64,000 nt of DNA from positions 60,471 to 124,470 of the forward strand of contig JBBRLQ010000023.1 in assembly GCA_038231275.1 (NCBI GenBank), read 5' to 3'. Position 1 is the first letter of the stretch; each line of letters begins with the position of its first letter. Both the position numbers and the translations under genes were made by a program. The notes below the pieces were generated by a model. That model saw only the letters and a program-made list of their open reading frames with translations. It had not been told where the DNA came from and did not search any database. The DNA comes from Polyangiales bacterium (lineage in GTDB: Bacteria; Myxococcota_A; Polyangia; Polyangiales; Polyangiaceae). Positions 777 through 17,286 of the stretch are shown in pieces.

Positions 777-797
777 CCGTCTTGTAGAGTGGCGGCG

Positions 798-1466
798 ATG
801 CGCCGACTCCTGATCGTCCTCGCCGTCACGGTCGCGTGCTCGAAGTCCTCCGAGTCCGCGACGCCGACTCCGACTCCGACTCCGACTCCGACTCCGGCTC
901 CGACTCCGACTCCGACTCCGACTCCGACTCCGACTCCGACTCCGACGCCGACTCCGACTCCGACTCCGACGCCGAAGGTGTACGCGCGCGTGCTCCACAC
1001 CGGTGACTCGATGGTCGGCGGCGGGCTCTCACGATCGCTCCGGCCGAAGTTCGAGGCCGAAGGCGCGAAGTACTTTCGCGACGTCTGGGAGAGCGGCTCC
1101 CTCCGCGATTTCTCGCGCTCCGATCGCATTCCGAAGTTGATCAAGGAGGACAAGCCGGACCTCGTCCTCCTCTCGCTCGGCGCGAACGACGTGTACGAGA
1201 CGAAGCCCGAGGTGATGGCGCCCTTCGTCGCGAAGATCGCCAAGATGACCGAGGGAGTCGACTGCATCTGGATCGGCCCGCCGATCTGGAAGGACGAGTA
1301 CAAGCGCCTGGTCCCGGTGCTTCGCGACAACGCCGCGCCCTGCAAATTCTTCGATTCGAGCGAGATCGAGATGCACCGCAAACCCGACGGCATCCACCCC
1401 GACGAAAAGGGGGGAGAAACCTACGCGGACGCGTTCTGGGCCTTCCTGCGGCCGCCTGCGAAGTAG
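798..1466 (+). CDS. SGNH/GDSL hydrolase-family lipoprotein with (Thr-Pro)n linker
   Basis: Lipobox VTVAC, TP repeat, block I GDSM, block III LGAND and block V DGIHP. ATG at 798 is preceded by TAGAGT-N7. Confidence 0.85.
861..974 (+). repeat. in-frame hexanucleotide tandem repeat (ACTCCG)n, about 19 units, encoding a TP linker
   Basis: Directly visible: ACTCCG units with a few ACGCCG/GCTCCG variants. Confidence 0.95.
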
Positions 1467-1480
1467 GCTACGTTTCTCCC

Positions 1481-2272
1481 ATGGGGGTGACTCCCAACGC
1501 GTTCGGGATCGCGCGCTCGATCGATCCCGTGCGGAGTCGGGCGCGGCTCGCAGAGCTGTGCGAGCTCATGATCCGCGACGTCGGCGGCATCGTGATGCCC
1601 CACCACGCCGAGACGTACCGTCAGCTCGCGGGCGATTTCGCCTCGGGTCGCGTCGCGCTCGCGTGGATGCCGCCGCTCCTGTGCATCGAGCTCGACAAGC
1701 AGCACGCGACCGCCGAGGTCGTACTGCCTGTGCGCGGGGGCTCGGTGACGTACTACTCGGCGCTCGTCGCGCGTCGCAGCGGGGGGCCGCGGAGCCTCGC
1801 CGACGTCAAGCACGCCAAGGTCGCGTGGGTCGATCCCGAGAGCTCCTCGGGGTACCTCGTGCCGCGCCTGCATCTCCAGTCCCAAGGCCGCGCGCTCGGC
1901 GCGATGTTCGATGGCGAGATGATGGCCGGCAGCCACGTCGCGGTCCTCGACGCCGTGCAGTCGGGGCGCGTCGACGTCGGCGCGACCTACTGCGCCAGCA
2001 AGGCGCCCAAGTGGATGTCGAACGCAGGCGTCGAGCGACCGCTCGACGCGCTCACGATCACCGGTGCGATCCCGAACGACGCCCTCGTCCTGTCGCCGGC
2101 CTTGACCGCCAACCAGCGCGCGAAGATCCAGCGCTGGTTCATCATGGATATGCCGGCGCGCGCGCGTCAGCTCACGCTCGACCTCATGGGCGCGTCGGAA
2201 TTCCGCGCGGGCTCGCTCAGCCATTTCGCGCCCCTCAGGCGAATGCTCGCGGCCGCCAGCTACGCGATGTGA
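1481..2272 (+). CDS. PhnD-like phosphate/phosphonate substrate-binding-fold protein, stand-alone
   Basis: Motifs YYSALVAR, AWVDPESSSGYLVPR, GSHVAVLDAV..GRVDVGA and IPNDA are typical of the PhnD family. No signal peptide is seen. Confidence 0.8.
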   Translation: MGVTPNAFGIARSIDPVRSRARLAELCELMIRDVGGIVMPHHAETYRQLAGDFASGRVALAWMPPLLCIELDKQHATAEVVLPVRGGSVTYYSALVARRSGGPRSLADVKHAKVAWVDPESSSGYLVPRLHLQSQGRALGAMFDGEMMAGSHVAVLDAVQSGRVDVGATYCASKAPKWMSNAGVERPLDALTITGAIPNDALVLSPALTANQRAKIQRWFIMDMPARARQLTLDLMGASEFRAGSLSHFAPLRRMLAAASYAM

Positions 2273-2301
2273 GCCGGAGTTTCTGCTAACTTGGCGGGGA
2301 A

Positions 2302-4374
2302 ATGCACGCCGCATGGTGGATGCTCGGGGCCCTCGCCGTGCTGGCGATCGGGTACCGCTACTACTCCGCGTTCCTCTCGGCGCGCGTCCTGTGCCTCGAC
2401 GACCGGCGAGTGACCGCCGCGCACACGCACGCCGACGGCCACGATTTCCACCCGACGAACCGCTGGGTCCTCTTCGGCCACCACTTCGCCGCGATCACCG
2501 GCGCCGGCCCCCTCATCGGCCCCGTCCTCGCCGCGCAGTTCGGCTTCTATCCGGGGTTCCTGTGGATCCTCTTCGGCGTGGTCCTCGGCGGCGCCGTCCA
2601 CGACTTCGTCATCCTCGTCGCGAGCACCCGGCGCGGCGGGCGCAGCCTCGCGGAGATCGCGAAGGACGAGCTGGGGCCGACGCTCGGCCTCGTCACCGCC
2701 GTCGCGATCCTCTTCATCGTCGTCATCGCGCTCGCGGGCCTCGGCAACGTCGTCGTGGGCGCCCTCATGGAGAGCGCGTGGGGCGTCTTCACGGTGAGCG
2801 CCTCGATCCCGATCGCGCTGGCGATGGGCTTCTACATTTACAGAGTCCGCGGCGGCACAGTGCGCGCGATCAAAGAGGCGTCGGTCGGGGGCGTGATCCT
2901 CCTCCTCGCCGCGCTCATCCTCGGCAAGACGGTCGGCGATTCGTCCTACGCGGTGTACCTGAAGCTGGGCAAGACGCCGCTGACGCTTGCGATGGCGGCG
3001 TACGGGTTCGCGGCCAGCGTCCTCCCGGTGTGGCTCCTCCTCTGCCCGCGCGACTACCTCTCCAGCTACCTGAAGATCGGCACGATCGGCGCGCTCGTCG
3101 TCGGCGTCGTCGTCGTGAACCCCGAGATCCAGATGCCGGGGGTGACCGAGTACATCCACGGGGGCGGTCCCATCCTGAAGGGGCCGCTCTTTCCGTTCGT
3201 GTTCATCACGATCGCGTGCGGCGCGATCAGCGGGTTTCACGGCCTCGTCGCGAGCGGCACCACGCCGAAGATGATCGATCGCGAGAGCGACTGCAGGCCC
3301 ATCGGCTACGGCGCGATGCTGATGGAGGGGCTCGTCGGCATCACGGCGCTGATCGCCGCGTGCGTCCTGCCGCCGGAGGACTACGTCACGATCAACACCG
3401 ATCCCAAGGTCGCGATCGTCGCGAGCGACGCCACGCACGGCGAAGGGCTCGCGCGCTCGCGCGAAGAGCTGATGAACGCCGCCGTCCACTTCGACGCGCA
3501 CGACCGGAAGCTCCTCGAGCTCGACGCGCGCTCGCTCGACGACCTCGCCGCTGCGAACATTCCCGCCTCCAAAGCGCTCGCCCTCTCGAACGGCGCGCTT
3601 GCGGCGCTGGGGTATACGGCCGATCCCGCCGCTCCTCGGGCGACCACCCTCGACGACGCCGACTTTGCGCGGCTAGGCCTCCACGTGAAGGAGCTGCCCG
3701 CCCTCTCGCGGGCGAGCGGCGAAGTCGTGGCGGCGCGTACGGGCGGCGGGGTCTCTCTCGCGGTCGGCATGGCGCGCGTCTTCAGCGGCCTCCCCGGAAT
3801 GAGCACGCTCCTCGCGTACTGGTACCACTTCGCGATCATGTTCGAGGCGCTGTTCATCCTCACGACGATCGACACCGGCACGCGCATCGGCCGGTTCTTG
3901 ATGCAGGAGATGATCGCCCGCGTCTCGCCTTCGCTCGGGCGACCGCAGAGCCGCGCCGGGAGCATTCTCGCGACGTTCCTCGTCGTGTTCGGGTGGAGCT
4001 ACTTCATCCTCACCGGCAACATCACGACCATCTGGCCGATGTTCGGCATCGCGAACCAGCTCCTGGCGTGCACGGCGCTCTGCGTGGCGACCACCATCCT
4101 CCTCCGCGAGGCCAAGAAGAAGAGCTACGCGCTCGTCACGATCCTGCCGCTCGCCTTCGTCGGCACCACCACGCTCACCGCCGGCGTGATGAGCATCGCG
4201 AACATCTACCTGCCGATGGCCCAACAGGCGGCGACGCGGACGACCGGGCTCGTGAACGTGATCGTCACCTCGCTCCTCATCGTGTGCGTGCTCGTGATCT
4301 TGGCAGGAAGCGTCGCGCGGTGGCTGGGCCTCACGCGCCGGCCCGAGGTCGACGCGCCGGTCACGTCGGCCTGA
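2302..4374 (+). CDS. cstA: carbon starvation protein A (peptide/pyruvate transporter)
   Basis: FGHHFAAITGAGPLIGP, PRDYLSS, FITIACGAISGFH, GYGAMLME, FILTTIDTGTR and IWPMFGIANQLL motifs, with many TM helices. Confidence 0.95.
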   Translation: MHAAWWMLGALAVLAIGYRYYSAFLSARVLCLDDRRVTAAHTHADGHDFHPTNRWVLFGHHFAAITGAGPLIGPVLAAQFGFYPGFLWILFGVVLGGAVHDFVILVASTRRGGRSLAEIAKDELGPTLGLVTAVAILFIVVIALAGLGNVVVGALMESAWGVFTVSASIPIALAMGFYIYRVRGGTVRAIKEASVGGVILLLAALILGKTVGDSSYAVYLKLGKTPLTLAMAAYGFAASVLPVWLLLCPRDYLSSYLKIGTIGALVVGVVVVNPEIQMPGVTEYIHGGGPILKGPLFPFVFITIACGAISGFHGLVASGTTPKMIDRESDCRPIGYGAMLMEGLVGITALIAACVLPPEDYVTINTDPKVAIVASDATHGEGLARSREELMNAAVHFDAHDRKLLELDARSLDDLAAANIPASKALALSNGALAALGYTADPAAPRATTLDDADFARLGLHVKELPALSRASGEVVAARTGGGVSLAVGMARVFSGLPGMSTLLAYWYHFAIMFEALFILTTIDTGTRIGRFLMQEMIARVSPSLGRPQSRAGSILATFLVVFGWSYFILTGNITTIWPMFGIANQLLACTALCVATTILLREAKKKSYALVTILPLAFVGTTTLTAGVMSIANIYLPMAQQAATRTTGLVNVIVTSLLIVCVLVILAGSVARWLGLTRRPEVDAPVTSA

Positions 4375-4914: not shown

Positions 4915-5082
4915 CTACTTCGCGTCGGCCTTCTTCGCGTCGGCGGCCTTCGCGTCGTACCCCTCGGGGTGGACCGCGAACTTCGGCGTGCCGAGGCGGC
5001 GGAGCGTGCGCTTGTTGCGCTTCCCGGCGGTGGAGGCCTTGCGCTTGCGGATGCGGTCGAACTGCTGCGTCGACGAAACCAT
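4915..5082 (-). CDS. small Lys/Arg-rich protein (55 aa), not in the ORF track
   Basis: Hand translation: MVSSTQQFDRIRKRKASTAGKRNKRTLRRLGTPKFAVHPEGYDAKAADAKKADAK. SD-like AGAGG lies 6 nt upstream, codons are GC3-biased, and it has its own promoter. Confidence 0.8.
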   Translation of the reverse strand: MVSSTQQFDRIRKRKASTAGKRNKRTLRRLGTPKFAVHPEGYDAKAADAKKADAK

Positions 5083-5141
5083 TGGAAACCTCTGAGCTTT
5101 TTGCGTATCGGGCGGGACGCCCAGGAGGACGCGGGACGCGC

Positions 5142-5170
5142 AAGATGGCCGGACAGGGGCCGCCTGTCAA
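5142..5170 (-). promoter_or_regulatory. sigma70-type promoter TTGACA-N17-CATCTT for the 55-aa basic protein
   Basis: Perfect -35 at 5170-5165, 17-nt spacer, -10 at 5147-5142. Confidence 0.6.
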
Positions 5171-5225
5171 GGGCAGGCGTCAAGTGCTGGCAAATCGCCC
5201 GAGTGCGATTAGGCTGCGCGCGCCG

Positions 5226-5888
5226 ATGAGCACCGTCGTCTCCGCCATGCCCGCGCGCCCGAAGCCGAAGCTCCGAGGCGTCTCTCATCAGATCGCCTGC
5301 TTCGTCGCCATCGCGGCGACGCTGCTCCTCGTTCGCAGCGCGGGCAGCCCGCGCGCCGCCGCCGCCGCCGCGATCTACGGCGCCTCGCTCTCGACGCTCC
5401 TCGGCATCAGCGCCCTCTACCACCGCAAACACTGGGCGCCGGCGCCGCGCATGATCATGCGACGCGTCGATCACTCGGCCATCTTCCTCTTGATCGCCGG
5501 CACCTACACGCCCGCCTTCTGGTTGCTCGATCCGATCCCCGGCCACCGGCCGCTCTGGATCGTGTGGATCGGCGCCGCGCTCGGCATCGGCAAATCGATG
5601 TTGTGGCCGAAGGCACCGAAGGCGGTCACCGCCGCGCTCTACGTGATTCTGGGGTGGGTCGTCGTCGGCGACGTCGTTCGGCTCGAGAGCGTGATGGGCG
5701 CGCCCGCGGTGTGGCTGCTCGTCATCGGCGGCGTCGTCTATTCGCTCGGCGCGCTCGTGTACGCGCGCCGAAAGCCGGATCCGATGCCCCTGGTCTTCGG
5801 GTACCACGAGATCTTCCACGCGCTGGTCCTGGTCGCCAGCGCGGTCCACTTCGCCCACGTGGTGCTCGTGCTCGGCGTCGCGCGTTAG
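5226..5888 (+). CDS. hemolysin III / PAQR-family membrane protein (TrhA-like)
   Basis: KPKLRGVSH, SALYH, RRVDHSAIFLLIAGTYTP and FGYHEIFH motifs. Start placed at ATG 5226. Confidence 0.92.
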   Translation: MSTVVSAMPARPKPKLRGVSHQIACFVAIAATLLLVRSAGSPRAAAAAAIYGASLSTLLGISALYHRKHWAPAPRMIMRRVDHSAIFLLIAGTYTPAFWLLDPIPGHRPLWIVWIGAALGIGKSMLWPKAPKAVTAALYVILGWVVVGDVVRLESVMGAPAVWLLVIGGVVYSLGALVYARRKPDPMPLVFGYHEIFHALVLVASAVHFAHVVLVLGVAR

Positions 5889-5901: not shown

Positions 5902-8856
5902 TCAGTTCACCGGCGCCGCGTTGTCCGGTGGCGCCGTGCTCGTCGCCGCGCCGGGGCTCGGGTTGACGGCGGCGCCTCCGAGATCGAAGAGCGGGAACTC
6001 GCGCGACTTGAACGCGAAGATCGGGATCTTGGTGTGGAAGCCCTTCCAGTGGAACAGCTCCACCTCGAAGAGCTTGATGCCGAGGAACTTGGCGTACGCG
6101 TCCATGTGACCGTCGAGCGTGCCGAGCGTGAGATCGAGCCCCGCGTCGAAGACGATCGAGACGACGGCGTCCTTCGACGACTTGAGCCGCGCGCCGCCGT
6201 GCACGGGGAGACCGATGTCGAGGAGCACGAGGTCCACGTCGACGCCGACGCCCGCGATGCCGGCGATACTGCAATCGGCGCCGACGACGAGATCGAGGTG
6301 CGCGTCGGGCTTCACGATGCCGTCGATGTTGAAGATCTCGTCCTTCTTGCAGGTCCCTTTGTCGGGCCCGCCGGCCTGCACGATGATGTCGGCGCCGTAG
6401 CCCCACGCGATGCCGATGGTGAAGGTCAACGTGACCCAGGTGATTTGCACGGGGATGACGGCGATCGTCTCCTCGCTGCCGCCCAAGTTGCCGGGGATGA
6501 TGTAGTTGCCGGCCTGGTTGATCTTGAACTCGGTATTGTCGGGGATCTTGTAGAACTCGTAGAGCCCCTCGAGGAACTCGCCGTGGCCGTAGACCTTCAC
6601 CTTGTCGGTCTGTTGCTGCTGCGCGTCGTCGTTGAGATCGATGCCAAAATCGGCGGCGACGATGTGGAACGGCGGCAAGCCGAACGCGTACGCGAACGCC
6701 TCGATCGACGCATGCGTGCGACCGCCCATGCGGCACGGCACGCTCGGATACTTCGGATCGTTGTCGGGGAAGCGCGCGAAGATTTTTGCCTCCCAGCCAA
6801 GGTCGTACGCGTAGCCGACGCCGAACGACTTGCTGCCCCATGTCTCGTTGTTGCGCTTGTCCTGGCCGAAGTTGTCGGTCTGTTTGATGGGCAGGCCCTC
6901 GAGGTCCTTGCCGCGCTTCACCTCGGCGGCAACGATGACGGACTTGGTCATGACCGGCGTGCGCGCGGGGATGCGCCCGGCGAAGAGCGTCGTGCGCCAG
7001 GTGCGGCACTCGGCGTACGCGCGCTCCTTGGCGGCCATGTTGTAGCCGACCGTGTTGTTCACCCAGCGCTTCACGAACATGTTCGGCGACCAGTCGCACG
7101 CGTAGTTCGCGGTGTCGAAGCAGGTCGGTCCGCGATTGGCAGCGGTCTTCTTCCCCCACTCGTCGAGGAGGACGTTGACGGTCTCGCACGCCGCGAGCTC
7201 GCCGACGAAGGCCTCGGGCGCTGCGGGAGTGGAGGCGGCCCACACGGTCTTCGGCGTGCTCTTGCGGTTCGACGCGCGCGGCGCGCAGAGGAGACGAGGG
7301 TACGGCACGGACGTGTCGATCTTGGGCGGGTGGACGCGCCAGTTGATGTCGAGGTACGCGAGCTGTCCGTTGTCGACGCTGGGCGACTGCGGCTGTTGGA
7401 GGCGTGTGCCGCTTCGCACGACGATGTTGCCGCCGGCGGTGGTGGGAGGTGGGCCGGCCTTGCCGCTCATCGCGTTCAGCTTCGGCGGCGCGGCGGCGCC
7501 CGCTTGGAGCAGCGGCGAGCCGAGCGTGACGGCGCCGCGGTTCGCGAGGCCGGGGAAGGCGAGGCCGCCGCCGATGTTGGCGCCGGCCTTCAGCGCATCG
7601 AGCATGCCGGCGTGCGCGTTGACGAACGAGAGCATGTCCGTCGCGTTGGTCCGGTCGACGTTGCCGAACGTCGCGCGTGAGGCGAACGGATCGCCGTCGG
7701 ACATCTGCGCCTGCCCGGGGAAGACGCGGCCGACGGCGCTGGGGATCCCGGTGCAGTCCTGGGGGTTCAGGTGCGCGACGCATTTGGCGACGTCGTAGAA
7801 GTGATCCATCGCGGCGAGCATCGCGTCGTTGCGCCGCTTGTACTCGTCGAACTCGCCGGGCGTGATCGCCGCGGTGCGCGTGTTGAGGACCTCGTGGAAG
7901 TCCCACTCGTCGGCGAAGCCCTGCGCCTTGGGGCCGATGCCGTTGCCCTTGCCGCCTTGCCCGATGTCGTAGGTCGAGAGCTCGTCACGGATCGCCTTGT
8001 AGAGCGCCTGCACGCTCGCCTGCTTCGCCGGATCGGACGCGAAAGCCGTGACGATCGACGCCGTGAGGAACGCGCCAGTGCCCGCGTAGAACGCGTTTTT
8101 CGGCATTCTTCCGGTGAAATCGAGACGACCGTCGTAGTCGGGGATGAACTCCTTGAAGGCCGGCAGGAGCGGGTTCTGGAGCGCGCGGCGCGCGATGCCG
8201 GGCGAGGCGGGCAAGAGGCTCACGTTGACCTCGCAGCGCGCGTCCCCTTTGCAGCCGTAGATCGCGTCGAGCCACCGCTCGTCGTCGTGGAACCCCTTGT
8301 AGACGTAGTCCTCGCACGACGCGACGTCGTCGCCGCCGGCCGCGTGAGGGCGCTGGTAGGTCGCGAGCAGGCCGCCCGGCGTCCACGCGAGCGCGTCGGT
8401 CTTCGCCTTCATCTCTTGCGCGGCCCAGCGGTTCTGGGTGTTGGGGCGCGGCGCGAGGCGAGGCCGCCGCTTCATCTTCGCGTTCCAGCTCTTGGGCTGA
8501 CGGTAGGGGTCCTGGGTATAGGGCACCGGCAGGATGCCGTAGCTCTCGTGACGATTCGAGTCGGCGAAGCCCGGCTCTTTGGGCGTTCCGTAGATCTTGT
8601 TTGGCGTCGGCGGTTTTCCCCCGACCCGCGGGCGCTGCTCCTCGAGCGCGAGGCGCTTGTTCATCGTGTCGCACGTGCCGCGGTTGGCGACGCAGAGCGC
8701 GTGGTAGTCGGGGTTGCCGCAGTCCGACGCGCTCGGAGGCACGTTGCACGGCGAGATCGGCGGGGGATCGCCGGGCGCCGCTGCGCTGTCCACGCCATAA
8801 AGCGACGCGCCGAGCGCGATACCGGCCATCCACGCGATCGTCTTCGTCTTGGTCAT
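5902..8856 (-). CDS. large exported Cys-containing protein (984 aa) with beta-strand-rich C-terminal third
   Basis: Signal peptide MTKTKTIAWMAGIALGASLYGVDSAAA, SD AGGAG, ATGA overlap with the upstream gene and GC3-biased codons. Function is not recognised directly. Confidence 0.85.
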   Translation of the reverse strand: MTKTKTIAWMAGIALGASLYGVDSAAAPGDPPPISPCNVPPSASDCGNPDYHALCVANRGTCDTMNKRLALEEQRPRVGGKPPTPNKIYGTPKEPGFADSNRHESYGILPVPYTQDPYRQPKSWNAKMKRRPRLAPRPNTQNRWAAQEMKAKTDALAWTPGGLLATYQRPHAAGGDDVASCEDYVYKGFHDDERWLDAIYGCKGDARCEVNVSLLPASPGIARRALQNPLLPAFKEFIPDYDGRLDFTGRMPKNAFYAGTGAFLTASIVTAFASDPAKQASVQALYKAIRDELSTYDIGQGGKGNGIGPKAQGFADEWDFHEVLNTRTAAITPGEFDEYKRRNDAMLAAMDHFYDVAKCVAHLNPQDCTGIPSAVGRVFPGQAQMSDGDPFASRATFGNVDRTNATDMLSFVNAHAGMLDALKAGANIGGGLAFPGLANRGAVTLGSPLLQAGAAAPPKLNAMSGKAGPPPTTAGGNIVVRSGTRLQQPQSPSVDNGQLAYLDINWRVHPPKIDTSVPYPRLLCAPRASNRKSTPKTVWAASTPAAPEAFVGELAACETVNVLLDEWGKKTAANRGPTCFDTANYACDWSPNMFVKRWVNNTVGYNMAAKERAYAECRTWRTTLFAGRIPARTPVMTKSVIVAAEVKRGKDLEGLPIKQTDNFGQDKRNNETWGSKSFGVGYAYDLGWEAKIFARFPDNDPKYPSVPCRMGGRTHASIEAFAYAFGLPPFHIVAADFGIDLNDDAQQQQTDKVKVYGHGEFLEGLYEFYKIPDNTEFKINQAGNYIIPGNLGGSEETIAVIPVQITWVTLTFTIGIAWGYGADIIVQAGGPDKGTCKKDEIFNIDGIVKPDAHLDLVVGADCSIAGIAGVGVDVDLVLLDIGLPVHGGARLKSSKDAVVSIVFDAGLDLTLGTLDGHMDAYAKFLGIKLFEVELFHWKGFHTKIPIFAFKSREFPLFDLGGAAVNPSPGAATSTAPPDNAAPVN

Positions 8857-10769
8857 CGGGTCTCCTGGGACACTGCGAGCGCCGGTATCGGATGGTCGTT
8901 TTCGAGCTCTCGCTCTTGCGCGAGGAGCCCCTCGATCTCGTCGTGGAGGTCGCTGTTCGCCGGCGTGCGCGCCAGGATGGCGACGAGGATGGGGTGCGCC
9001 TCGTCCTCGGGGTTCGACGCGGCGGTGCCGAGCAGCGACACGATCGCGCCGTCCGCGGCGTGCGGCGTCTTGTCGAACGCGACGAGCTCGCGAAGGCGCG
9101 CCCAGTCGTCACCGGACAGGCTCTGCATCCGGAGCGCGCGGATCGCGGTGACTGCGACGCTGACCATGCGATCTTGCGCCAGCTCGAAGAGCGTCGTGCG
9201 CGTCACGTCGCTGTCGATGTTGCGCAGGCTGAACGCGACCTGATCGCGCACGTGCGCGCCGGTGCTGCGGGCGTAGGGCGCCATCACCGCGTCGTCCCCC
9301 ACGAACGCGCCGTTTCCAAGCCCTTTCAAGAGGGCGATCTGGTCGTCCTCGTCCGTCGCTGCCGCGAGATCGGCGAGCAGCGTCGCGTGGATGTCGTCGC
9401 CGAGCCCGTCGCCGACCGCGTGGAGCTTTCGCGCCAGCGCGCCGAGCGGGACCGCCGACGCGCGCGCGCGCTCGACGTTTTTTTGCGCCTTGGCCTCGTC
9501 ATAGACATCTCGCACGACCGCGGCCGTTGCGCGCGCCGGCTTCCTCACGAGCATGAAGCGCTGCACGAAATGCCCGAACGCCTCCGTGTCGGCGCGCGCC
9601 TCGCTCGAGCCAATGAGCGTTGCCATCGCCTCCTGTGCCGTCGCGTCGCCGGTCGCGCTGAGCAGATCCATCACGAGCGTGCGCGACGCGTTCGAGCGGG
9701 TCGATTGGAAGAGCGCGACCAGCGCGCGCGTCGACTCGGGGTGAAGTCGACCGTACGCCGACGCGCGGACGATGAAGCCGCGCTTCAGATCGGGGCTGCG
9801 GGCGTAGTCGAGGACGGTGGCCTGGATCGACGCGGTCGTCGTGTCGGCGACGAGGCTCTCGTCCCTCTTCTGCTCGTCGATCGCGAGCGGAGCGGCGGTG
9901 GCGGTGAAGCGCGCGGCGTCGCTCGGACGCGCGTCGTTCGGCGTGATCGCGCGTCGCGTCAGCTCGAGCTCCGAAGACGAGCGATAGGGGAGGTCACCCG
10001 TGTCGATCGTCACCTGCTCGGTGTCGCGCATCGAGACGAGCACGCCCGCCGTGTCCAGCACGATCGTCGCGCCGCCGCCGACGTGTTGCGGCGCGTCGTC
10101 CAGCTCACCCGGCGCGGCAGGCACCGCGGTCACGTGGGTGTAGGCAACGCGCTCGCGAAGGAGCGTGCGCGCGTCGTCGCTCCGGTAGCGCACCTTGCAC
10201 GTCCCGGTCGGCGTCGTCTCTTCGGCTTCCCAGGTCGTCACCGCACCGTCGGGGGGGAGGCTGACGCGGACCGCCTGCACGACGCGCTCGAGCAGCTGCC
10301 GAACGCGAGGCGGCGTCGTCGGATCGAACGCGACGCTCACGATTCGCCCTCGCTCGTCCATGCGAACGAGCGCTGCCTGGCCTACGATCGCGCTCTTCTC
10401 GGCGGGCGCCGTCGCGTCGTCGAACATCGGCTTGCCCTGCATGCGCACGTCGTACGTCCGGATCTCGGGCATGGAGACGACGAGTTCGGACACGCCGTCA
10501 CGCGCGCCGATCGCGCGGACGAGGAGCGTCGCCTCGAGCCGCACGTCGACGTCCATCGGATGCGGAGCGCCGGGCAAGTGGACCAGCGACGCGCCCGACC
10601 AGGTGAGATCGTAGACGTGGTCGCTGCCGGCGCTCCACCGCTGGGCCCGCGTCGTGGCGCGCTCGTTCGCGTGCGCCGCGGGCCCCATCGCGCGCCTCGC
10701 GGTGGCGTACATGCACACCGCCGCTGCGCCCATCAATGCGGTGAGGATCACCGCGTGCGTCCTCTTCAT
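8853..10769 (-). CDS. exported protein resembling the vitellogenin/MTP lipid-transport N-terminal module (beta-sheet plus helical/HEAT-like domain)
   Basis: Start MKRTHAVILTALMG (signal or anchor; GGAG upstream). Motifs EETTPTGTCKVRY, MDLLSATG, LGALARKL, LLKGLGNG and VRDQVAFSLR. Confidence 0.75.
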   Translation of the reverse strand: MKRTHAVILTALMGAAAVCMYATARRAMGPAAHANERATTRAQRWSAGSDHVYDLTWSGASLVHLPGAPHPMDVDVRLEATLLVRAIGARDGVSELVVSMPEIRTYDVRMQGKPMFDDATAPAEKSAIVGQAALVRMDERGRIVSVAFDPTTPPRVRQLLERVVQAVRVSLPPDGAVTTWEAEETTPTGTCKVRYRSDDARTLLRERVAYTHVTAVPAAPGELDDAPQHVGGGATIVLDTAGVLVSMRDTEQVTIDTGDLPYRSSSELELTRRAITPNDARPSDAARFTATAAPLAIDEQKRDESLVADTTTASIQATVLDYARSPDLKRGFIVRASAYGRLHPESTRALVALFQSTRSNASRTLVMDLLSATGDATAQEAMATLIGSSEARADTEAFGHFVQRFMLVRKPARATAAVVRDVYDEAKAQKNVERARASAVPLGALARKLHAVGDGLGDDIHATLLADLAAATDEDDQIALLKGLGNGAFVGDDAVMAPYARSTGAHVRDQVAFSLRNIDSDVTRTTLFELAQDRMVSVAVTAIRALRMQSLSGDDWARLRELVAFDKTPHAADGAIVSLLGTAASNPEDEAHPILVAILARTPANSDLHDEIEGLLAQERELENDHPIPALAVSQETR

Positions 10770-10890
10770 GCGTTCGTCTCCCAGCGATCCATCAGAGGCG
10801 CGAAGGGCGATTGCCGCAAGGATTCCGTCGCTTACACGGTCGCGTAAACACCGAGGGCGAGCGATCGCGGCGAGCGGTACGATCGGAAGG

Positions 10891-11766
10891 ATGCGCGCGC
10901 CGCCCGCCCATGGGATTCTCGTCGCGATCGCGGCGATGATGGCGGCGTCGTGCGACGGATCGCGCGCCTCGACGTCGGCCCCGGCGGACTCGGGGACGTG
11001 CGCCGCCGTCGCGGACGCGTCGGACCTCGCGTGCGTGCTCCACGTCGACGGTCGCGTCATCGATCTCGCCGGCTCGCCTGTGCGGCGGCCCGTCGTGTCC
11101 ATGTGCTCGCGCGAGTGCTACGGCGCCGCAGGGGCCGACGACGGGACCTTCTCGATCCCTATAGGCGCGCTGCTTCGCGCTAGCGATTATGCGCTCCACG
11201 TCAGCGGCCGCCCCGACTTCGCCGACGTGTACTCGAAGGTGCCGCCGGCCGACAAAGGAGCGATCGCGCTCGGAGCGGCGATCATTCTGCCCGCGCTTCC
11301 ATCGACCGGGCCAGCGCTTCCGGACGCCGCGGCGACGGCCACGACGATCGTGAGCGGCGATCTCACGCTCGACGTGCCCGCAGGTGCCACCTTCCAACTC
11401 GACGTCGGCGACGTCGCGCTCGGCGACCGCGGTCGCCAGCTCCGTGTCGCGCGCGTACCGCTGGACGCCACCCCGGAGTTCGCGCGCGCGCTCACCGGCG
11501 TCGTGGGCCTCTACGCGCTCGCGCCTCCGGGCGCCGCGTCGTCTCTTCCGCTCGCCGTGCACCTGCCGAACGCGGCTTCGCTTCCGCCGTCGAGCGCGGT
11601 CGATCTCTTCGTGCTCGACGACGACTACCGCCCGATGCCGCCCACCGCGGGCACTGCGCGCCTCGCGGCGAAGGCGCACGTCTCGGCAGATGGCCGTACC
11701 ATCGACACCGACGTCGGTGCGGGCATCGCGAACCTCACTTGGCTGGTCGTGCGTCGATCTCCGTGA
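10891..11766 (+). CDS. hypothetical lipoprotein with carboxypeptidase-regulatory-like beta domain
   Basis: Lipobox MAASC; VDGRVIDLAGSPV...DDGTFSI pattern; TACGAT-N7-ATG. Confidence 0.7.
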   Translation: MRAPPAHGILVAIAAMMAASCDGSRASTSAPADSGTCAAVADASDLACVLHVDGRVIDLAGSPVRRPVVSMCSRECYGAAGADDGTFSIPIGALLRASDYALHVSGRPDFADVYSKVPPADKGAIALGAAIILPALPSTGPALPDAAATATTIVSGDLTLDVPAGATFQLDVGDVALGDRGRQLRVARVPLDATPEFARALTGVVGLYALAPPGAASSLPLAVHLPNAASLPPSSAVDLFVLDDDYRPMPPTAGTARLAAKAHVSADGRTIDTDVGAGIANLTWLVVRRSP

Positions 11767-11814: not shown

Positions 11815-12162
11815 ATGTCCGCTTTTCGTTCGGTCTTCGTTGTTTCGGTCGTCGCTTCCATCGCAGTCGTCGCCGCGTGCAACGGCGACGACACGGTCGC
11901 GCCCAACGGCACGCACAGCTCGACGTCGTCGTCGTCGTCCGGCAGCACCGGCGCGTCCGGGAGCGGCAGCAGTGGCACCTCGTCCGGCACGCCAAGCTTG
12001 CCGCCGCCGGCCCCGCCTCCGCCGACTCCTCCTCCGCCTCCGCCCGTGGACGCCGGCAAGAAGGACGGCGGCGACGCAGGCGACGCCGGTAAGGACGCAG
12101 TCGCGAACGACACAGGCGCGGACGCCGACGACGGCGCGGCCGACGCAAGCGACTCCGGCTGA
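11815..12162 (+). CDS. small Ser/Pro/Asp-rich low-complexity lipoprotein
   Basis: SD GAGGAGG, lipobox VAAC, poly-Ser, poly-Pro and DAG repeats. Confidence 0.75.
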   Translation: MSAFRSVFVVSVVASIAVVAACNGDDTVAPNGTHSSTSSSSSGSTGASGSGSSGTSSGTPSLPPPAPPPPTPPPPPPVDAGKKDGGDAGDAGKDAVANDTGADADDGAADASDSG

Positions 12163-12234: not shown

Positions 12235-13719
12235 TTAGTTTGCGGGGCGGACGGTAACGTTCGCGGAGTAGGTCGGCATCGCGAAGGCAGGGACCTTCGC
12301 CTTGCCGAGCGCCGCCTTGATGCAACCCTCGGCCGGCTTGCCTGCGGCGTTGCCGGTGACGATCACGCTCTGCACGCTGCCGTTCGATCCGAACGTCACC
12401 GCGGCGCGTGAGACGGGCTCGTCCTGCTTGAGGCACGCACGCGCCGCGGGGAGGGCCGCGCCGATCGCGCCGGTGACCGCGCCCTGCGAGGGCTTCTGCG
12501 GGACGCTGCCCGCGGCGATCGCCGGATCGGTCGCCGCGGGAGCCGCGGGCGTCGTGTCCTGAGACGCCGGCGTGGGCGCCGGGGTCACGGCGGCCGACTG
12601 CTTGATCGCGTCGGCGAGCGCACCGGTCGGTCCGGGCGCGGGCGGAAGATCCTTCGCGACGAGCTTCGGATCGATTTTGTCGGTCTTGTCCGTCGGGTCG
12701 GCCTTCGCGACGCGTGCGCCGCCGGCCTTCTTGGGCGCCGCGTTCGGGGCCGTCGCCACCTTGCCGCCACCGCCGACGGCACCCTTGGTCGGATCGTCGG
12801 TCTTGCTCGTGTCGTCCGCCGGCGTCGCCGTCGCGAGCGCGACCGGAGCTGCGGCCGGAGCGGTCGTCGCCAAAGGAGCAGCCTCGGCGTTCGGATCGGC
12901 CGGCGCCGGGACGATCATCGCCACCGCCTGCGCCGCCCTCTTCGCCTGCTGCGCCTTCACGACGAAGAACGCGCCCGCCGCCATCGCGGCGATCGCCGCC
13001 ACGCCGCCGATCAGGAGGAGCCCGCTGCTCTTCTTCTTATCGTTCTTGTCACCCTTCGCGACCTTGCCGGAGACCGGCTGACCCGAGAGCACCGCGGAGG
13101 CGACCGCGCTCGAGATGGCCGGCGCGCTCATCGGCGCTTGCGAATTGCGCAGCGAGCTCGGCGGCTGGCTGTTGCGGTCTTCCTCGTCGAACAGCGGCTG
13201 CGACGCGAGCGGCGTGCTCTGCGCGCGGCTCGAAGCCATCGGGTCGGACGCGGCGGCAGCCTTCAAATCGACGACGCCCGAGTCGCTCGCGTGCGCTTCT
13301 GCGGCGCGGAGGATACCGCTGGGCGGCGAGCTGACCGGTTGGGAGCGAACCGAGGGCGGCGGCGGCGTGTTCGCCATCCGGGCCAGATCCTGAAAGCTCC
13401 GCCTCTCGCGCGTCGACGTCGTCGTGCTGCTTGCCATCTTTCCCTCCAGGGACTGCCCGACAGAGGCGCTTCGGCTCGAAGGAGCCACGCCTACCCCAGT
13501 TGAAGCGGCCGTCTTATGACCTTCTTCGGGCGTCGATGGAAGAGGTGGATCCAAGAAATTTTCAGTGCCGATGTGTGCTTTTGTCGGTGAGTTCGCGACC
13601 TTGGCGTCCACCTCGCTGGCGCGCGCCTCCCAATCTTCCGCAGAAATCGCGGGCTCCGGCCACTCGCCGAGGGTCTTGAGCAGCGCGCGATCGCTCGCGT
13701 CTTTCCGCGTCTCACTCAC
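12235..13719 (-). CDS. bitopic membrane protein with Pro/Ala linker and C-terminal TonB_C/AgmX-like domain; probable anti-sigma factor
   Basis: Starts 1 nt after the ECF stop. Single TM (GLLLIGGVAAIAAMAAGAFFVV); C-terminal ARAC...VTFGSNGSVQSV...AEGCIKAAL..AKVPAF. Confidence 0.75.
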   Translation of the reverse strand: MSETRKDASDRALLKTLGEWPEPAISAEDWEARASEVDAKVANSPTKAHIGTENFLDPPLPSTPEEGHKTAASTGVGVAPSSRSASVGQSLEGKMASSTTTSTRERRSFQDLARMANTPPPPSVRSQPVSSPPSGILRAAEAHASDSGVVDLKAAAASDPMASSRAQSTPLASQPLFDEEDRNSQPPSSLRNSQAPMSAPAISSAVASAVLSGQPVSGKVAKGDKNDKKKSSGLLLIGGVAAIAAMAAGAFFVVKAQQAKRAAQAVAMIVPAPADPNAEAAPLATTAPAAAPVALATATPADDTSKTDDPTKGAVGGGGKVATAPNAAPKKAGGARVAKADPTDKTDKIDPKLVAKDLPPAPGPTGALADAIKQSAAVTPAPTPASQDTTPAAPAATDPAIAAGSVPQKPSQGAVTGAIGAALPAARACLKQDEPVSRAAVTFGSNGSVQSVIVTGNAAGKPAEGCIKAALGKAKVPAFAMPTYSANVTVRPAN

Positions 13720-13720
13720 G

Positions 13721-14314
13721 TCACAAACTCCCTTCTTCCAAGTCGAAACCCCGTTCGGACAGAAACTCCCTCAGTTTGCGCCGCGCCTCGTGCACGCGCC
13801 ACGCGATCGTCCCCTCCGGTGCGCCGAGGATTTGCGCCGCGTCCTCGTGCGAGCGGCCGTCGATGCAGACCAAAATGAGGGTCGTCCGCAGCGTCTCGCT
13901 CAGCTTGTCGATCCCCTCGCAAAGGGTGAAGTAGAGCTCTTTGCGCGACGCTTGACCTCGCGGATCGCTCGAGGGGCCGCTACCCTTCTCGCTGAGGAGC
14001 GCGTCGAGGCGGGGATCGTCGGAGTCCGCGCCCGTCCGAGCGGTCTTGCGCGCGCGGATCGTGTTGAGCGAGAGGTTCACCGTGATCCGGTAAAACCAGG
14101 TGTAGGGCTCGCTCCTGCCGTCGAAGCGGGCGAGCGCCTGGTAGGCGCGGATGAACGTCTCTTGCGTGACGTCCTCGGCCTCCGCCCGATCGCGCAACAT
14201 GTGCACCGCGAGGCGATGAATGCGCGGCTGATGGCGTCGAACCAGCTGGCCAAAGGCCAGGTTGTCTCCGCTCTTGGCGCGATCGACCAGATCGCGATCG
14301 GTCAGCTTTGCCAT
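13721..14314 (-). CDS. ECF (RpoE-like) RNA polymerase sigma factor
   Basis: AFGQLVRRH, AEDVTQETFIRAY, WFYRITVN and region 4 EDAAQILGAPEGTIAWRVHEARRKL. The start could instead be ATG 14377. Confidence 0.93.
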   Translation of the reverse strand: MAKLTDRDLVDRAKSGDNLAFGQLVRRHQPRIHRLAVHMLRDRAEAEDVTQETFIRAYQALARFDGRSEPYTWFYRITVNLSLNTIRARKTARTGADSDDPRLDALLSEKGSGPSSDPRGQASRKELYFTLCEGIDKLSETLRTTLILVCIDGRSHEDAAQILGAPEGTIAWRVHEARRKLREFLSERGFDLEEGSL

Positions 14315-14679
14315 CGGCCTTCCGGTGGTGTTCGCGCTTCTACTGGACAGAGCGCCTCCACCTCCACCTTGATGCATCTGCGCCGGGATCGAGACGACCT
14401 CGAAGTCAGCGAGGAGCAACTCCGGGCAGGACGATAGCGTAAGCACGCCTCTTTTAACAATTAAGCCGGGGGTTACCTTGGATCGCGCGGGCTTCCGGAG
14501 GGCGTTTTTCGGATAGGGCAACCCCTCGTAATGAATCGTAAACGGTCGCCGATCGCCTGAAAAAGGAGGAAGATGCTGCCGGTGGAGCGCGTTGGCGACG
14601 CGTCAATCGTCTCGGGCATCGAAATTTCGCCCCGGCGCCCTACGACTACGCGCCGACCCGCTTTCTACTGGAGACCCGC

Positions 14680-16029
14680 ATGGCCGATACGTCCGCAGTG
14701 ACCGAAGAGCTCCGTCGCGCGCTGCAAGCAGAAGAAGGTGGTCGCCGCTGGGTGCGGCGCGGCATGATCGCGGGCGGCATCGCGCTCGTGATCGGCGCGG
14801 GCCTGTTGTGGCGGGCGAAGCACCAACCGCCGCCGCCGGCGAAGTTCGTGAGCGCGCAGGTCGCCGTGGGGGACATCGCGGAGAAGGTGCAGGCCACCGG
14901 CGCCGTGCAGCCGCTCCTGCAAGTCAACGTCGGCGCGCAGGTCAACGGACGCGTGACGCGCGTTCTCGTCGACTTCAACACGCTCGTTCACAAAGGGGAC
15001 GTGCTCGCCGAGATCGATCCTTCGATTTACGGCACGCAGGTGGCCTCGCAGCAGTCGCAGGTCGCGGCGCAGCGCGCGCAGCTCGAGCAAGCGCGCGCGC
15101 AGAGCCAGACCGCGAAGGCGCAGGTCGAGACCGCGCGCGCGCAGATGGACACGACGAAGGCGCAGTACGATCGCGTCAAGCGCCTCTTCGAGCAGAACCT
15201 CGCCAGCAAGGGGGATCTCGACGCCGCGAAGGGGGCCTACGACGGCGCGAAGGCGCAACACGACGCCGCGAGCGCCACGTTCGACGCGTCGAGCGCCGCC
15301 GTGAACAGCGCGCATGCCAGCATCGGCGCGCAGCAGGCGCAGCTGAACCAGATGACGACGAACCTCGGCTACACGAAGATCTACGCCCCGGTCGACGGCG
15401 TCGTCGTCACGCGCAGCATCGATCCGGGCGCCACCGTCGTCGCGAGCTTCCAGGCGCCGGTCCTGTTCGTCATCGCGCAGGACTTGAAGAAGATGCGCGT
15501 CCTCGCCGACGTCGACGAGGCAGACGTCGGCAAGCTCAAGGACGGCATGGAGGCCGACGCCGTCGTCGACGCGTTCCCGGGCGAGGCGTTCCACGGCGTC
15601 GTCCAGCAAGTCCGCTTCAGCCCCAACAACGTGCAGGGCGTCGTCACCTACTCGGCGGTCATCGAGGTGCAGAACCCCGATGAGAAGCTGCGCCCCGGCA
15701 TGACCGCGACCGTGACCATCAAGACGCGCGAGGTGAAGGGCGCGCTTCGAATTCCCAACGCGTCGCTTCGCTACAAGCCGAGCCCGCCGCTCGGGCCCGA
15801 TGGCAAGCCGGTCCTCCAGACCCCCGAGCCGCCGCTCGCGAAGGGGCAGGGGCGTATCTGGGTCATCACGAGCGAGAAGCCTGGCGAAGAGAAGGACGAG
15901 CAGAAGCTCATCGGCGTCGGCATCACCGACGGTGTCTTCACCGAGCTCCTCCCGGGCCCGGTGGCCGCGGGCGCGAAGATCGTCACCGACGAGAACGAGA
16001 CCGACGACAAGAAGAAGAAGGGGAAGTAA
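14680..16029 (+). CDS. MacA-like periplasmic adaptor (membrane fusion protein)
   Basis: N-terminal TM, VNVGAQVNG, long coiled coil, TKIYAPVDGVV, VDEADVG and LRPGMTA. Confidence 0.93.
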   Translation: MADTSAVTEELRRALQAEEGGRRWVRRGMIAGGIALVIGAGLLWRAKHQPPPPAKFVSAQVAVGDIAEKVQATGAVQPLLQVNVGAQVNGRVTRVLVDFNTLVHKGDVLAEIDPSIYGTQVASQQSQVAAQRAQLEQARAQSQTAKAQVETARAQMDTTKAQYDRVKRLFEQNLASKGDLDAAKGAYDGAKAQHDAASATFDASSAAVNSAHASIGAQQAQLNQMTTNLGYTKIYAPVDGVVVTRSIDPGATVVASFQAPVLFVIAQDLKKMRVLADVDEADVGKLKDGMEADAVVDAFPGEAFHGVVQQVRFSPNNVQGVVTYSAVIEVQNPDEKLRPGMTATVTIKTREVKGALRIPNASLRYKPSPPLGPDGKPVLQTPEPPLAKGQGRIWVITSEKPGEEKDEQKLIGVGITDGVFTELLPGPVAAGAKIVTDENETDDKKKKGK

Positions 16030-17285
16030 TGGCCGCCGCGGAGGTCCTCCCGACGGCGCATGGGCGCGGCGATCCCGAGGTCTTGATCGAGATCAAGAGC
16101 GTCGCCAAGGACTACGTCTCGGCGGCCGGCGTCGTGCGCGCGCTGCGCGAGGTCGACATCGAAATCCGGCAGGGCGAGTTCGTGGCCGTCGTCGGCACGA
16201 GCGGCAGCGGGAAGTCGACGCTGATGAACATCCTCGGCTGCCTCGATCGGCCGACCCACGGCACCTACTCACTCGCCGGCCTCGACGTCGGCGCGCGTAC
16301 GAACGACGGGCGCGCCATCGTCCGAAATCGCCTCATTGGCTTCATTTTCCAGGGATTCAACCTGCTCCCGCGCACGACGGCGCTCGAGAACGTCGAGCTG
16401 CCGCTCCAGTACCGCGGCGTACCGGCCGCCGATCGCCGGAAGCGCGCGCTGGCGTCGCTTGCACAAGTCGGTCTCCAAGATCGCGTGCATCATACACCCA
16501 ACCAACTCTCCGGCGGGCAGCAGCAGCGCGTGGCCATTGCCCGCGCGCTCGTCACCGATCCGCCGCTGCTCCTCGCCGACGAGCCGACCGGCAACTTGGA
16601 CACCCGCACCAGCCTCGAGGTCCTCGCGCTCCTCCAGGAGCTCAATCGCAAGGACCGCATCACGATCGTGCTGGTCACCCACGAGCGCGACATCGCCGCG
16701 TGCGCGTCGCGCGTCATCACGTTCCGCGACGGCCGCGTGCTCACCGACATCACGCAGGAGAAACCGCTCGACGCCGCGGCCGCGCTCGCCGACCTGCCCA
16801 CGCCGCAAGATGGCCCCAGTCAAGGCGCCGAAGACGACGACGAGGACCCCGTGCTTGCCGCCCGGATGCGTCGCGGCGGTCCGGTTCCGTTCGCCGTCTA
16901 CGGCGCGATGTTGGGCGGCTCCATCCTCGGCGCCTTGGTCGGGCTCCTCTACAATGCCGTCGTCCTCGAGGCGAAGGTCGCGTGGGTCATCGTCCTCGCG
17001 GCGGCGCTCGGCGAGTCGCTGCTGGCGGCGCGGGTTGGGAGGAGCAAGCTCGGGCGACCGCTGACGGGCGATCAGCGCGCGCGCATGGCGATCGGGTACA
17101 CGATCGCGACCGCGCTCGTGGTGGCGCCGTTCCTCCTCTACCGCGTGCCGCTCCCGATCGCGTCGCGCCTCGAGGGCCTGAGTGCCAGCGGCGTCGCTGC
17201 GGCGGGCGCCGTGTTCGTGCTCGCCCTCGCCGCACTCGCGCTCCTGCGTTTCCTCCTCCTGTCGCTCCTCGGGCCGAGGAAGTGA
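16029..17285 (+). CDS. MacB/LolD-type ABC ATP-binding protein with an extra C-terminal domain of about 4 TM helices
   Basis: Walker A GTSGSGKST, LSGGQQQRV, LLADEPTGNLD and VTHE, then about 140 aa of hydrophobic C-terminus. Confidence 0.92.
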   Translation: MAAAEVLPTAHGRGDPEVLIEIKSVAKDYVSAAGVVRALREVDIEIRQGEFVAVVGTSGSGKSTLMNILGCLDRPTHGTYSLAGLDVGARTNDGRAIVRNRLIGFIFQGFNLLPRTTALENVELPLQYRGVPAADRRKRALASLAQVGLQDRVHHTPNQLSGGQQQRVAIARALVTDPPLLLADEPTGNLDTRTSLEVLALLQELNRKDRITIVLVTHERDIAACASRVITFRDGRVLTDITQEKPLDAAAALADLPTPQDGPSQGAEDDDEDPVLAARMRRGGPVPFAVYGAMLGGSILGALVGLLYNAVVLEAKVAWVIVLAAALGESLLAARVGRSKLGRPLTGDQRARMAIGYTIATALVVAPFLLYRVPLPIASRLEGLSASGVAAAGAVFVLALAALALLRFLLLSLLGPRK

Positions 17286-17286
17286 C

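Follow-up and report, generated by a model that had tools for sequence, protein, structure and literature searches.

A coupled gene pair in Myxococcota predicted to encode a bacterial large lipid transfer protein in two subunits

The superfamily of large lipid transfer proteins (LLTPs), to which apolipoprotein B (apoB), the microsomal triglyceride transfer protein (MTP), vitellogenin and apolipophorin belong, underlies lipoprotein assembly and yolk formation. A 64,000-nucleotide stretch from the assembly GCA_038231275.1 of a Polyangiales bacterium (contig JBBRLQ010000023.1, positions 60,471 to 124,470 of the forward strand; in the following called the window) contains two adjoining minus-strand genes whose products, judging from their predicted structures, probably constitute a bacterial LLTP made as two exported polypeptides. 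The upstream gene (8853..10769, minus strand) encodes a protein of 638 amino acids (P0003), here termed LLT-N, and the downstream gene (5902..8856, minus strand) encodes its partner of 984 amino acids (P0002), which is without a known family. LLT-N would contribute the beta-barrel and the double-layer helical domain of the large lipid transfer (LLT) module, which in MTP and lipovitellin hold the lipid-binding sheets as cradle and clamp, and the partner about 300 residues of amphipathic strands that follow a disulfide-rich domain of ~630 residues. Our confidence in this joint two-subunit proposal is moderate because its later steps, from the equation of the partner's strands with the C- and A-sheets of LLTPs to the assembly of a heterodimer with a cavity, its place in or outside the cell and any lipid in it, are inferred.

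Gene structure and the LLT-N fold

An earlier sequence-only reading of the window had described two minus-strand open reading frames (ORFs) that overlap by an ATGA, and this gene structure is directly visible in the DNA: the minus-strand junction reads CCCGATGACC, in which the partner's ATG (8856-8854) and the TGA that ends the LLT-N gene (8855-8853) share exactly the four nucleotides 8853..8856. The partner's start codon has an AGGAGA 5 nt upstream of it (8861-8866, minus strand; junction order AGGAGA-CCCG-ATGA), and a ribosome-binding-like GGGAGA (10777..10782, minus strand) lies 7 nt before the LLT-N ATG at 10769. A longer in-frame ORF extending to 11102 was considered for LLT-N and rejected; this extension is judged to be non-coding because the alignment of four homologues begins at the methionine at 10769. 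The GC content at third codon positions is 0.90 for LLT-N and 0.92 for the partner, compared with 0.47-0.70 for the overlapping frames. Both ORFs are real genes, each present as a single copy within the window, and all peptide strings quoted in the earlier reading were recovered from their translations in the order given there.

The LLT-N protein very probably has the N-terminal fold of the LLT module. The fold is seen directly in an AlphaFold2 model based on a 129-sequence alignment (pLDDT 91.3, pTM 0.78), in which DSSP assigns 11 strands to a beta-barrel of residues 49-277 (9939..10625, minus strand) that is built around an internal helix (residues 154-166). The barrel is followed by an alpha-helical domain of residues 299-625 (8895..9875, minus strand), whose 18 helices, modelled with pLDDT values of mostly 94-98, form a double-layer superhelix and include a PBS-HEAT-like stretch at residues ~484-555. 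In MTP, according to the structural account available in PMC6717300, the barrel comprises residues 21-297, the 17-helix domain residues 298-603 and the A- and C-sheets residues 604-884; the helical domain clamps the sheets, and the pit of the barrel takes up part of the A-sheet. The two LLT-N domains (49-277 and 299-625) mirror the first two of these in their boundaries, with lengths that agree nearly residue for residue. LLT-N then ends 13 residues past its last helix, where the sheets of MTP would start, and neither a C-sheet nor an A-sheet is present in the same polypeptide. The model together with these published MTP boundaries agrees with what the sequence-only reading had proposed for the 638-residue protein, namely an LLT-module architecture that stops after the helical domain.

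Structure comparison with Foldseek against 350,542 PDB chains points in the same direction. Ranks 1 to 11 for the LLT-N model are occupied by LLTPs only; their E-values lie between 6.7e-17 and 7.8e-9, and their alignments span ~390-760 columns. At the top stand the MTP chains 6i7s_H and 6i7s_G (best E 6.7e-17; 635-640 columns) and lipovitellin 1lsh_A (E 2.0e-14; ~640 columns); the others are the ApoB100 structures 9bd1, 9e9r, 9ea7 and 9bdt (E 7.7e-13 to 3.4e-10), MTP 8eoj_B (E 6.0e-11), the honey-bee vitellogenins 9ens and 9enr (E ~1e-10) and 9bd8_A, a chain of the ApoB beta-barrel (E 7.8e-9; 387 columns). The best match outside the superfamily is a designed armadillo protein with an E-value of 2.5e-5, at which the generic ARM and HEAT proteins begin.

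Conserved motifs of the LLT module were compared by eye with the alignment that Avarre et al. (2007; PMC1783640) published as Additional file 2. The motif E-x4-G-x-C-x-V-x-Y, which the sequence-only reading had named as closing the N-terminal beta-sheet, corresponds to the N3/N4 block of that alignment (human MTP, for example, has QTEVDISGNC KVTYQV, and lamprey vitellogenin has QLETGVEGIC QTTYVV), and LLT-N carries it at residues 184-195 as EETTPTGTCKVRY, that is, E184-x4-G189-x-C191-x-V193-x-Y195. Within the helical domain, the N8 motif (published as DAV-TSAQTS and DAL-P.AGT) is matched by DLLSATGD (D-x5-G), the L-K-A-L-G-N block (LALKALG NAGQP) by ALLKGLGNGAF, and the A-x2-A-L-R block (AEAIMALRNI) by DQVAFSLRNI. 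These four elements, N3/N4, N8, L-K-A-L-G-N and A-x2-A-L-R, occur in LLT-N in the published order; by the same visual comparison, counterparts of N1, N2, N5-N7 and of N17-N22 from the late sheet region were not matched in LLT-N. Several of the positions concerned are conserved in the family: W180, G189 and Y195 are each conserved in at least 90% of 129 sequences and E184 in at least 90% of 75 sequences, G485 reaches at least 90% in all three LLT-N alignments, and N486 does not vary among the 25 sequences of one alignment and reaches at least 90% in the alignment of 75.

By sequence, LLT-N belongs to a large family. P0003 alone has no significant match in Pfam, NCBIfam or the PDB sequences, and a word-index search retrieved four relatives at 48-55% identity. 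A five-sequence profile run against 1.84 billion cluster representatives collected 1,657 proteins at E<=0.001, including 335 at E<=1e-30; among the best 150 of these 1,657, lengths are mostly 590-680 amino acids, with 23 shorter. Vitellogenin_N (PF01347) was matched by 41 of the 75 family members that were scanned (E<=0.01, best 4.2e-11), and HEAT_2 by 74 of them. The Vitellogenin_N matches in the relatives cover the helical part only and are collinear (protein residues ~343-567 on positions 339-567 of the 590-position profile). In the relative P0007, the match scores 25.6 bits against a gathering cut-off of 24 and aligns residues 382-557 with positions 354-539 of the 590 in the profile; in P0023 it reaches 42.6 bits against the same cut-off. 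For a further relative, P0004, a precomputed table lists PF01347, yet rescanning gave no match to this profile. A 129-sequence profile searched against PDB sequences found strong alphaRep and HEAT matches at positions 484-555, and also the MTP large subunit at an E-value of 1.8e-4 (profile 412-528 on MTP 388-504).

The partner protein and export of the pair

The partner has six homologues at 35-60% identity, and a second homologue search with a 13-sequence partner alignment added no new members. These 13 sequences found nothing meaningful in Pfam and NCBIfam, profiles of the full-length protein and of its C-terminal part each gave 0 matches against PDB sequences, and in the ESM Atlas the C-terminus led to unnamed clusters only and residues 160-640 to none. 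The protein can be divided into a cysteine-rich N-terminal region of residues 28-656 (6889..8775, minus strand) and a C-terminal domain. The N-terminal region is modelled mostly below a pLDDT of 50. Among its conserved blocks are CEDYVYKGF..ERWLDA..C.GD.RCE, F.DEWDFH and ACDWSP..FVKRWV, and the alignment contains 11 invariant cysteines plus one that is conserved in at least 90% of the sequences.

The C-terminal domain (residues 657-956; 5989..6888, minus strand) is the sole decently modelled part of the partner, with a pLDDT of ~70-80, and is all-beta, with ~19 strands, many of them 14-22 residues long. Amphipathic strands at this end of the protein had been anticipated from the sequence, and the model bears this out: of the 14 strands scored, all but two (662-674 and 927-937) have faces that lie more than 1.5 Kyte-Doolittle units apart in hydropathy. 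A Foldseek search with the whole partner model returned exactly three matches at E<=0.001, all of them MTP or lipovitellin: MTP 6i7s_G (E 4.4e-5; 395 columns; probability 1.00), MTP 6i7s_H (E 1.4e-4) and lipovitellin 1lsh_A (E 8.1e-4; probability 0.92). A Tc-toxin A subunit takes rank 4 with a probability of 0.20, ranks 5 and 6 are MTP 8eoj_B and vitellogenin 9ens_A (probabilities 0.72-0.82), and outer-membrane barrels and substrates of the BAM complex appear at E-values of 0.05-0.25 with probabilities of 0.04-0.16. That the model of a gene adjoining the LLT-N gene should recover the same two solved proteins by chance seems unlikely. On these model-based grounds, we lean slightly towards the view that the C-terminal sheets of the partner correspond to the C- and A-sheets of LLTPs.

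Both proteins are likely exported, as read from their N-terminal sequences, in which the basic and hydrophobic stretches expected from the earlier reading are found. Residues 1-26 of LLT-N (10692..10769, minus strand), basic and then hydrophobic, may represent a Sec signal peptide or a signal anchor; the segment ends in ...YATA/RR, which is compatible with either a cleaved signal or an anchor. Residues 5-26 are modelled as a helix with low pLDDT, and an equivalent segment is present in the four closest homologues. The partner has a putative signal peptide at residues 1-27 (8776..8856, minus strand), in which ...SAAA/PG follows a hydrophobic core. Export of the partner is further supported because the 11 invariant cysteines and the one nearly invariant cysteine fit a disulfide-bonded exported protein.

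Coupling of the two genes across Myxococcota and the local neighbourhood

Related loci were collected by a genome scan seeded with the partner alignment, which returned 10 loci. Going by the titles of their records, all of these are from Myxococcota: some belong to Polyangiales or Polyangiaceae metagenome-assembled genomes (MAGs) or to MAGs that bear the label "Deltaproteobacteria", others to Vitiosangium sp. GDMCC 1.1324, Archangium and Nannocystaceae. In two of them (L006 and L009) the contig edge lies 0-160 nt after the partner gene, so that they could not be scored; in all eight scorable loci, hidden Markov model searches of the ORFs placed an LLT-N gene next to the partner gene on the same strand. 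The gene order is that of the window in three loci (L001-L003) and reversed in five (L004, L005, L007, L008 and L010), and where both genes are intact, which is the case in seven loci, ~1-105 nt separate them, varying with the start codon chosen. The flanking genes vary between the loci and the pair alone is conserved; a conserved third gene was looked for and rejected, as the flanks differ from locus to locus. The homologues of the two proteins that had been retrieved by protein search can likewise be paired by the lengths of their contigs. A FastTree phylogeny of 136 LLT-N sequences places those loci in which the partner was verified on three branches of a 39-row subclade (support 92). This adjacency was observed directly, and the two genes are in all likelihood functionally coupled. 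The co-occurrence of the two genes, which the sequence-only reading had named as a test of its proposal, was therefore confirmed in every locus that could be scored.

Some of the related loci show peculiarities of their own. The partner homologue in L006 is split by an in-frame TAG (2168-2170) into the ORFs 581-2167 and 2171-2986, which lie in one frame and each match the profile of the partner; the TAG could be a sequencing error, a sign of a pseudogene or a site of read-through. In the Nannocystaceae MAG of L008 (823-3762), neither gene is intact: the pieces present are short, lie in different frames and match the partner profile at 198-377, 585-631 and 668-767 and that of LLT-N at 360-434 and 490-626; from its sequence, we regard this as a decayed locus or a poor assembly. 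One MAG (L007) contains near the pair an ORF with a bacterial microcompartment shell (BMC) domain (3023-3736, minus strand; Pfam E 3.1e-6).

Within the window, the pair stands alone on its strand between a converging and a diverging gene. The converging gene (5082-5888, plus strand) encodes a membrane protein of the HlyIII/PAQR family (Pfam E 1e-42) and ends 13 nt from the partner's stop codon; the scanned flanks of the related loci showed no HlyIII/PAQR gene. On the other side, a lipoprotein-like ORF (~10891-11766, plus strand; ...AAMMAASC...; no Pfam match) diverges from the LLT-N gene across ~120 bp and is followed by a second lipoprotein-like ORF (11815-12162, plus strand; N-terminus ...AVVAAC...). 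About 1.5 kb upstream of the pair and on the same strand lie a gene for an extracytoplasmic function (ECF) sigma factor (13721-14521, minus strand) and, following it, a gene for a low-complexity protein of 494 amino acids with one hydrophobic segment (12235-13719, minus strand), which from its sequence looks like an anti-sigma factor. A gene with sigma-70 region 2 directly precedes the pair in L010 as well. Shared control by an ECF sigma factor was considered and rejected, as the sigma factors of the window and of L010 are unrelated (BLASTP E 2.8), and a promoter and terminator scan gave no signal above that of shuffled sequences. Further away, the plus strand encodes an adaptor of the HlyD type, an ABC ATPase and a pair of MacB/FtsX permeases (14680-19724), followed by a cytochrome P450 (19740-21224). 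HlyD and ABC genes are found again directly upstream of the pair in L001 (2351-5448), and their proximity in both loci may reflect local synteny that has been retained or a functional connection with export. On the far side of the HlyIII/PAQR gene, the region 789-4374 (plus strand) encodes a DUF459/GDSL-like lipase, a periplasmic binding protein of the phosphonate type and CstA, the carbon starvation protein (E 1e-197).

Proposed mechanism, alternatives and known systems

If the pair is a two-subunit LLTP, both proteins would be exported by the Sec system, after which the barrel and the helical clamp of LLT-N would dock onto the beta-sheets of the partner, either in the periplasm or outside the cell. 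Docking would create a closed hydrophobic cavity for the binding and shuttling of lipid, similar to the arrangement in MTP and lipovitellin. The cysteine-rich domain could position the complex on a membrane, a vesicle or a further partner and thus serve in localization or provide an accessory activity. For the carriage of lipid by the pair, taken by itself, we put the chances a little short of even. The capture of prey lipids, the transport of sterols and target recognition by the N-terminal 650 amino acids of the partner, as suggested in the sequence-only reading, are speculation.

A number of observations weigh against this two-subunit reading. Profile searches link LLT-N to LLTPs in its HEAT-like helical region alone, and alphaRep proteins dominate the profile matches in the PDB. 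P0003 itself has no match to Vitellogenin_N at E<=1, the five-sequence LLT-N profile gave 0 matches against the PDB, and an eight-sequence profile of residues 40-483, from which the HEAT-like stretch had been left out, found no LLTP there. The barrel disulfide Cys174-Cys194 of MTP, which the structural description in PMC6717300 gives as conserved with lipovitellin, is absent in LLT-N, whose sole barrel cysteine, C191, is replaced in P0006, P0007 and the family consensus. The TM-scores of the LLT-N Foldseek matches are low (0.27-0.37, at root-mean-square deviations of 12-24 Å), and therefore the domains of LLT-N, although recognizable as the same, are either packed unlike those of the solved LLTPs or mis-modelled. 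On the side of the partner, no sequence method establishes a connection to any LLTP or other family, the AlphaFold2 model from 13 sequences is poor (pLDDT 53.3, pTM 0.35), its Foldseek TM-scores are only 0.09-0.14, the Foldseek output gives no MTP residue range for the alignment, and its ~19 strands outnumber the 12 of MTP. Finally, the pairing of the two genes was examined within one 39-row subclade of the 136-row tree.

Three other explanations have to be considered in this light. LLT-N alone might be LLTP-like and serve as a scaffold, chaperone or receptor, while the linked partner is something other than its missing half, for example a secreted disulfide-rich enzyme or adhesin with a beta-domain of another fold. 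The missing sequence link of the partner, its weak model and its low TM-scores are what one would expect in this case; moreover, two thirds of the partner consist of a domain that LLTPs lack, and the existence of two gene orders speaks against a simple recent fission. Against it stands that independent models of both neighbouring genes rank MTP and lipovitellin best among all chains searched, and that LLT-N ends exactly at the boundary between the helices and the sheets of MTP and therefore has no cavity of its own. We consider this explanation unlikely, but it deserves to be taken seriously. It is clearly less probable that the C-terminus of the partner is an outer-membrane or pore-forming beta-barrel and the pair a surface-display, secretion or toxin-like system. 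The strands are indeed long, amphipathic and rich in glycine, and Foldseek lists BAM/EspP, TamAB, OmpF, OmpU, the membrane attack complex and Tc-toxin A at E-values of 0.009-0.25, but these barrel and toxin matches have probabilities of 0.03-0.20 as opposed to 0.92-1.00 for the top three LLTPs and 0.72-0.82 for ranks 5 and 6. Two hallmarks of outer-membrane beta-barrels, a closed barrel and an aromatic C-terminal beta-signal, are not apparent in the partner: it ends in ...AAPVN and its relatives in ...LVGMK or ...LVLAD, without a terminal aromatic residue, and a tail of 28 residues, modelled with low confidence, comes after its last strand. No Pfam outer-membrane protein or autotransporter family was matched by the partner sequences.

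Lastly, the likeness to LLTPs could be convergent or generic, with LLT-N a HEAT-repeat protein that carries an unrelated beta-sandwich and has neither an evolutionary nor a functional connection to lipid transfer. By sequence methods alone LLT-N could be a plain HEAT-repeat protein, because the HEAT-free and the five-sequence profiles found no LLTP; the signal from HEAT_2 and alphaRep far exceeds that of Vitellogenin_N or MTP, a sequence match at the level of the barrel is lacking and the TM-scores are low. Structure comparison argues strongly against this explanation, which we regard as very improbable: in Foldseek, MTP outscores the generic repeat proteins by 12 orders of magnitude, and these align over 265-430 columns instead of ~640, and the barrel of apoB alone is matched at 7.8e-9. 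The LLT-N barrel moreover bears the published N3/N4 motif at positions conserved in the family, and the Pfam matches of the relatives are collinear and, in the two examined (P0007 and P0023), exceed the gathering score. The pair is best described as a probable two-subunit LLTP.

LLTPs are treated as an animal family in the available text of two publications on the superfamily (PMC1783640, PMC6717300), and a search of the full-text literature, in whose coverage most subscription journals are not included, found no description of a bacterial LLTP or Vitellogenin_N protein. The PF01347 label on P0004 shows that databases already tag such bacterial proteins silently; what we read as new here is an LLTP that is both bacterial and split, and that has an extra domain. 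A more far-reaching idea, which we consider rather improbable, is that LLTPs are not an animal invention, that Myxococcota and their relatives hold a large and old two-component family, in which one subunit has the barrel and helices and the other the sheets, and that the single-chain MTP, vitellogenin and apoB of animals descend from it by gene transfer and fusion. If such a bacterial ancestry of LLTPs were true, the pair would be the first prokaryotic extracytoplasmic bulk lipid carrier of the LLTP type. A deep bacterial family with barrel and helices would make the origin of LLTPs testable. The natural split would separate the clamp from the lipid-binding sheets and could offer a simple system for studies of cavity loading. 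The pair would also point to an unrecognized route of lipid handling in the envelope of Myxococcota or outside their cells.

Among the known systems, HEAT proteins of the PBS-lyase type and alphaRep proteins resemble LLT-N strongly at the family level, in the region of residues ~484-555. This likeness concerns two to three repeats in a domain of 18 helices, and it leaves the barrel and the LLTP-specific Foldseek ranking unexplained. Lipovitellin, vitellogenin and the N-terminal region of apoB-100 (1lsh, 9ens/9enr, 9bd1, 9e9r) have the fold of the LLT module in common with LLT-N and occupy Foldseek ranks 3-11; relatives of LLT-N match Vitellogenin_N, and these animal proteins are extracytoplasmic, as the bacterial pair appears to be from its sequences. 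Unlike the pair, they are circulating lipoproteins of 1,000 to over 4,500 amino acids with additional domains, such as the DUF1081 and VWD domains named in the domain descriptions of PMC1783640, which the bacterial pair does not contain. The best structural match for LLT-N and the partner alike is MTP-alpha (6i7s, 8eoj), in which a barrel with an internal helix, a superhelix of ~17-18 helices and beta-sheets follow one another with nearly equal boundaries, and the N3/N4 motif is common to both. The Foldseek alignments have a sequence identity of 8-12%, and the Cys174-Cys194 disulfide of the barrel and the protein disulfide isomerase (PDI) partner of MTP are absent from the bacterial system, whose partner protein in turn adds a cysteine-rich domain of ~630 amino acids. 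MTP is a single chain of 894 amino acids in the animal endoplasmic reticulum, whereas the sheets of the bacterial counterpart would be supplied by a second gene; MTP is itself a heterodimer, with PDI, as the bacterial pair would be.

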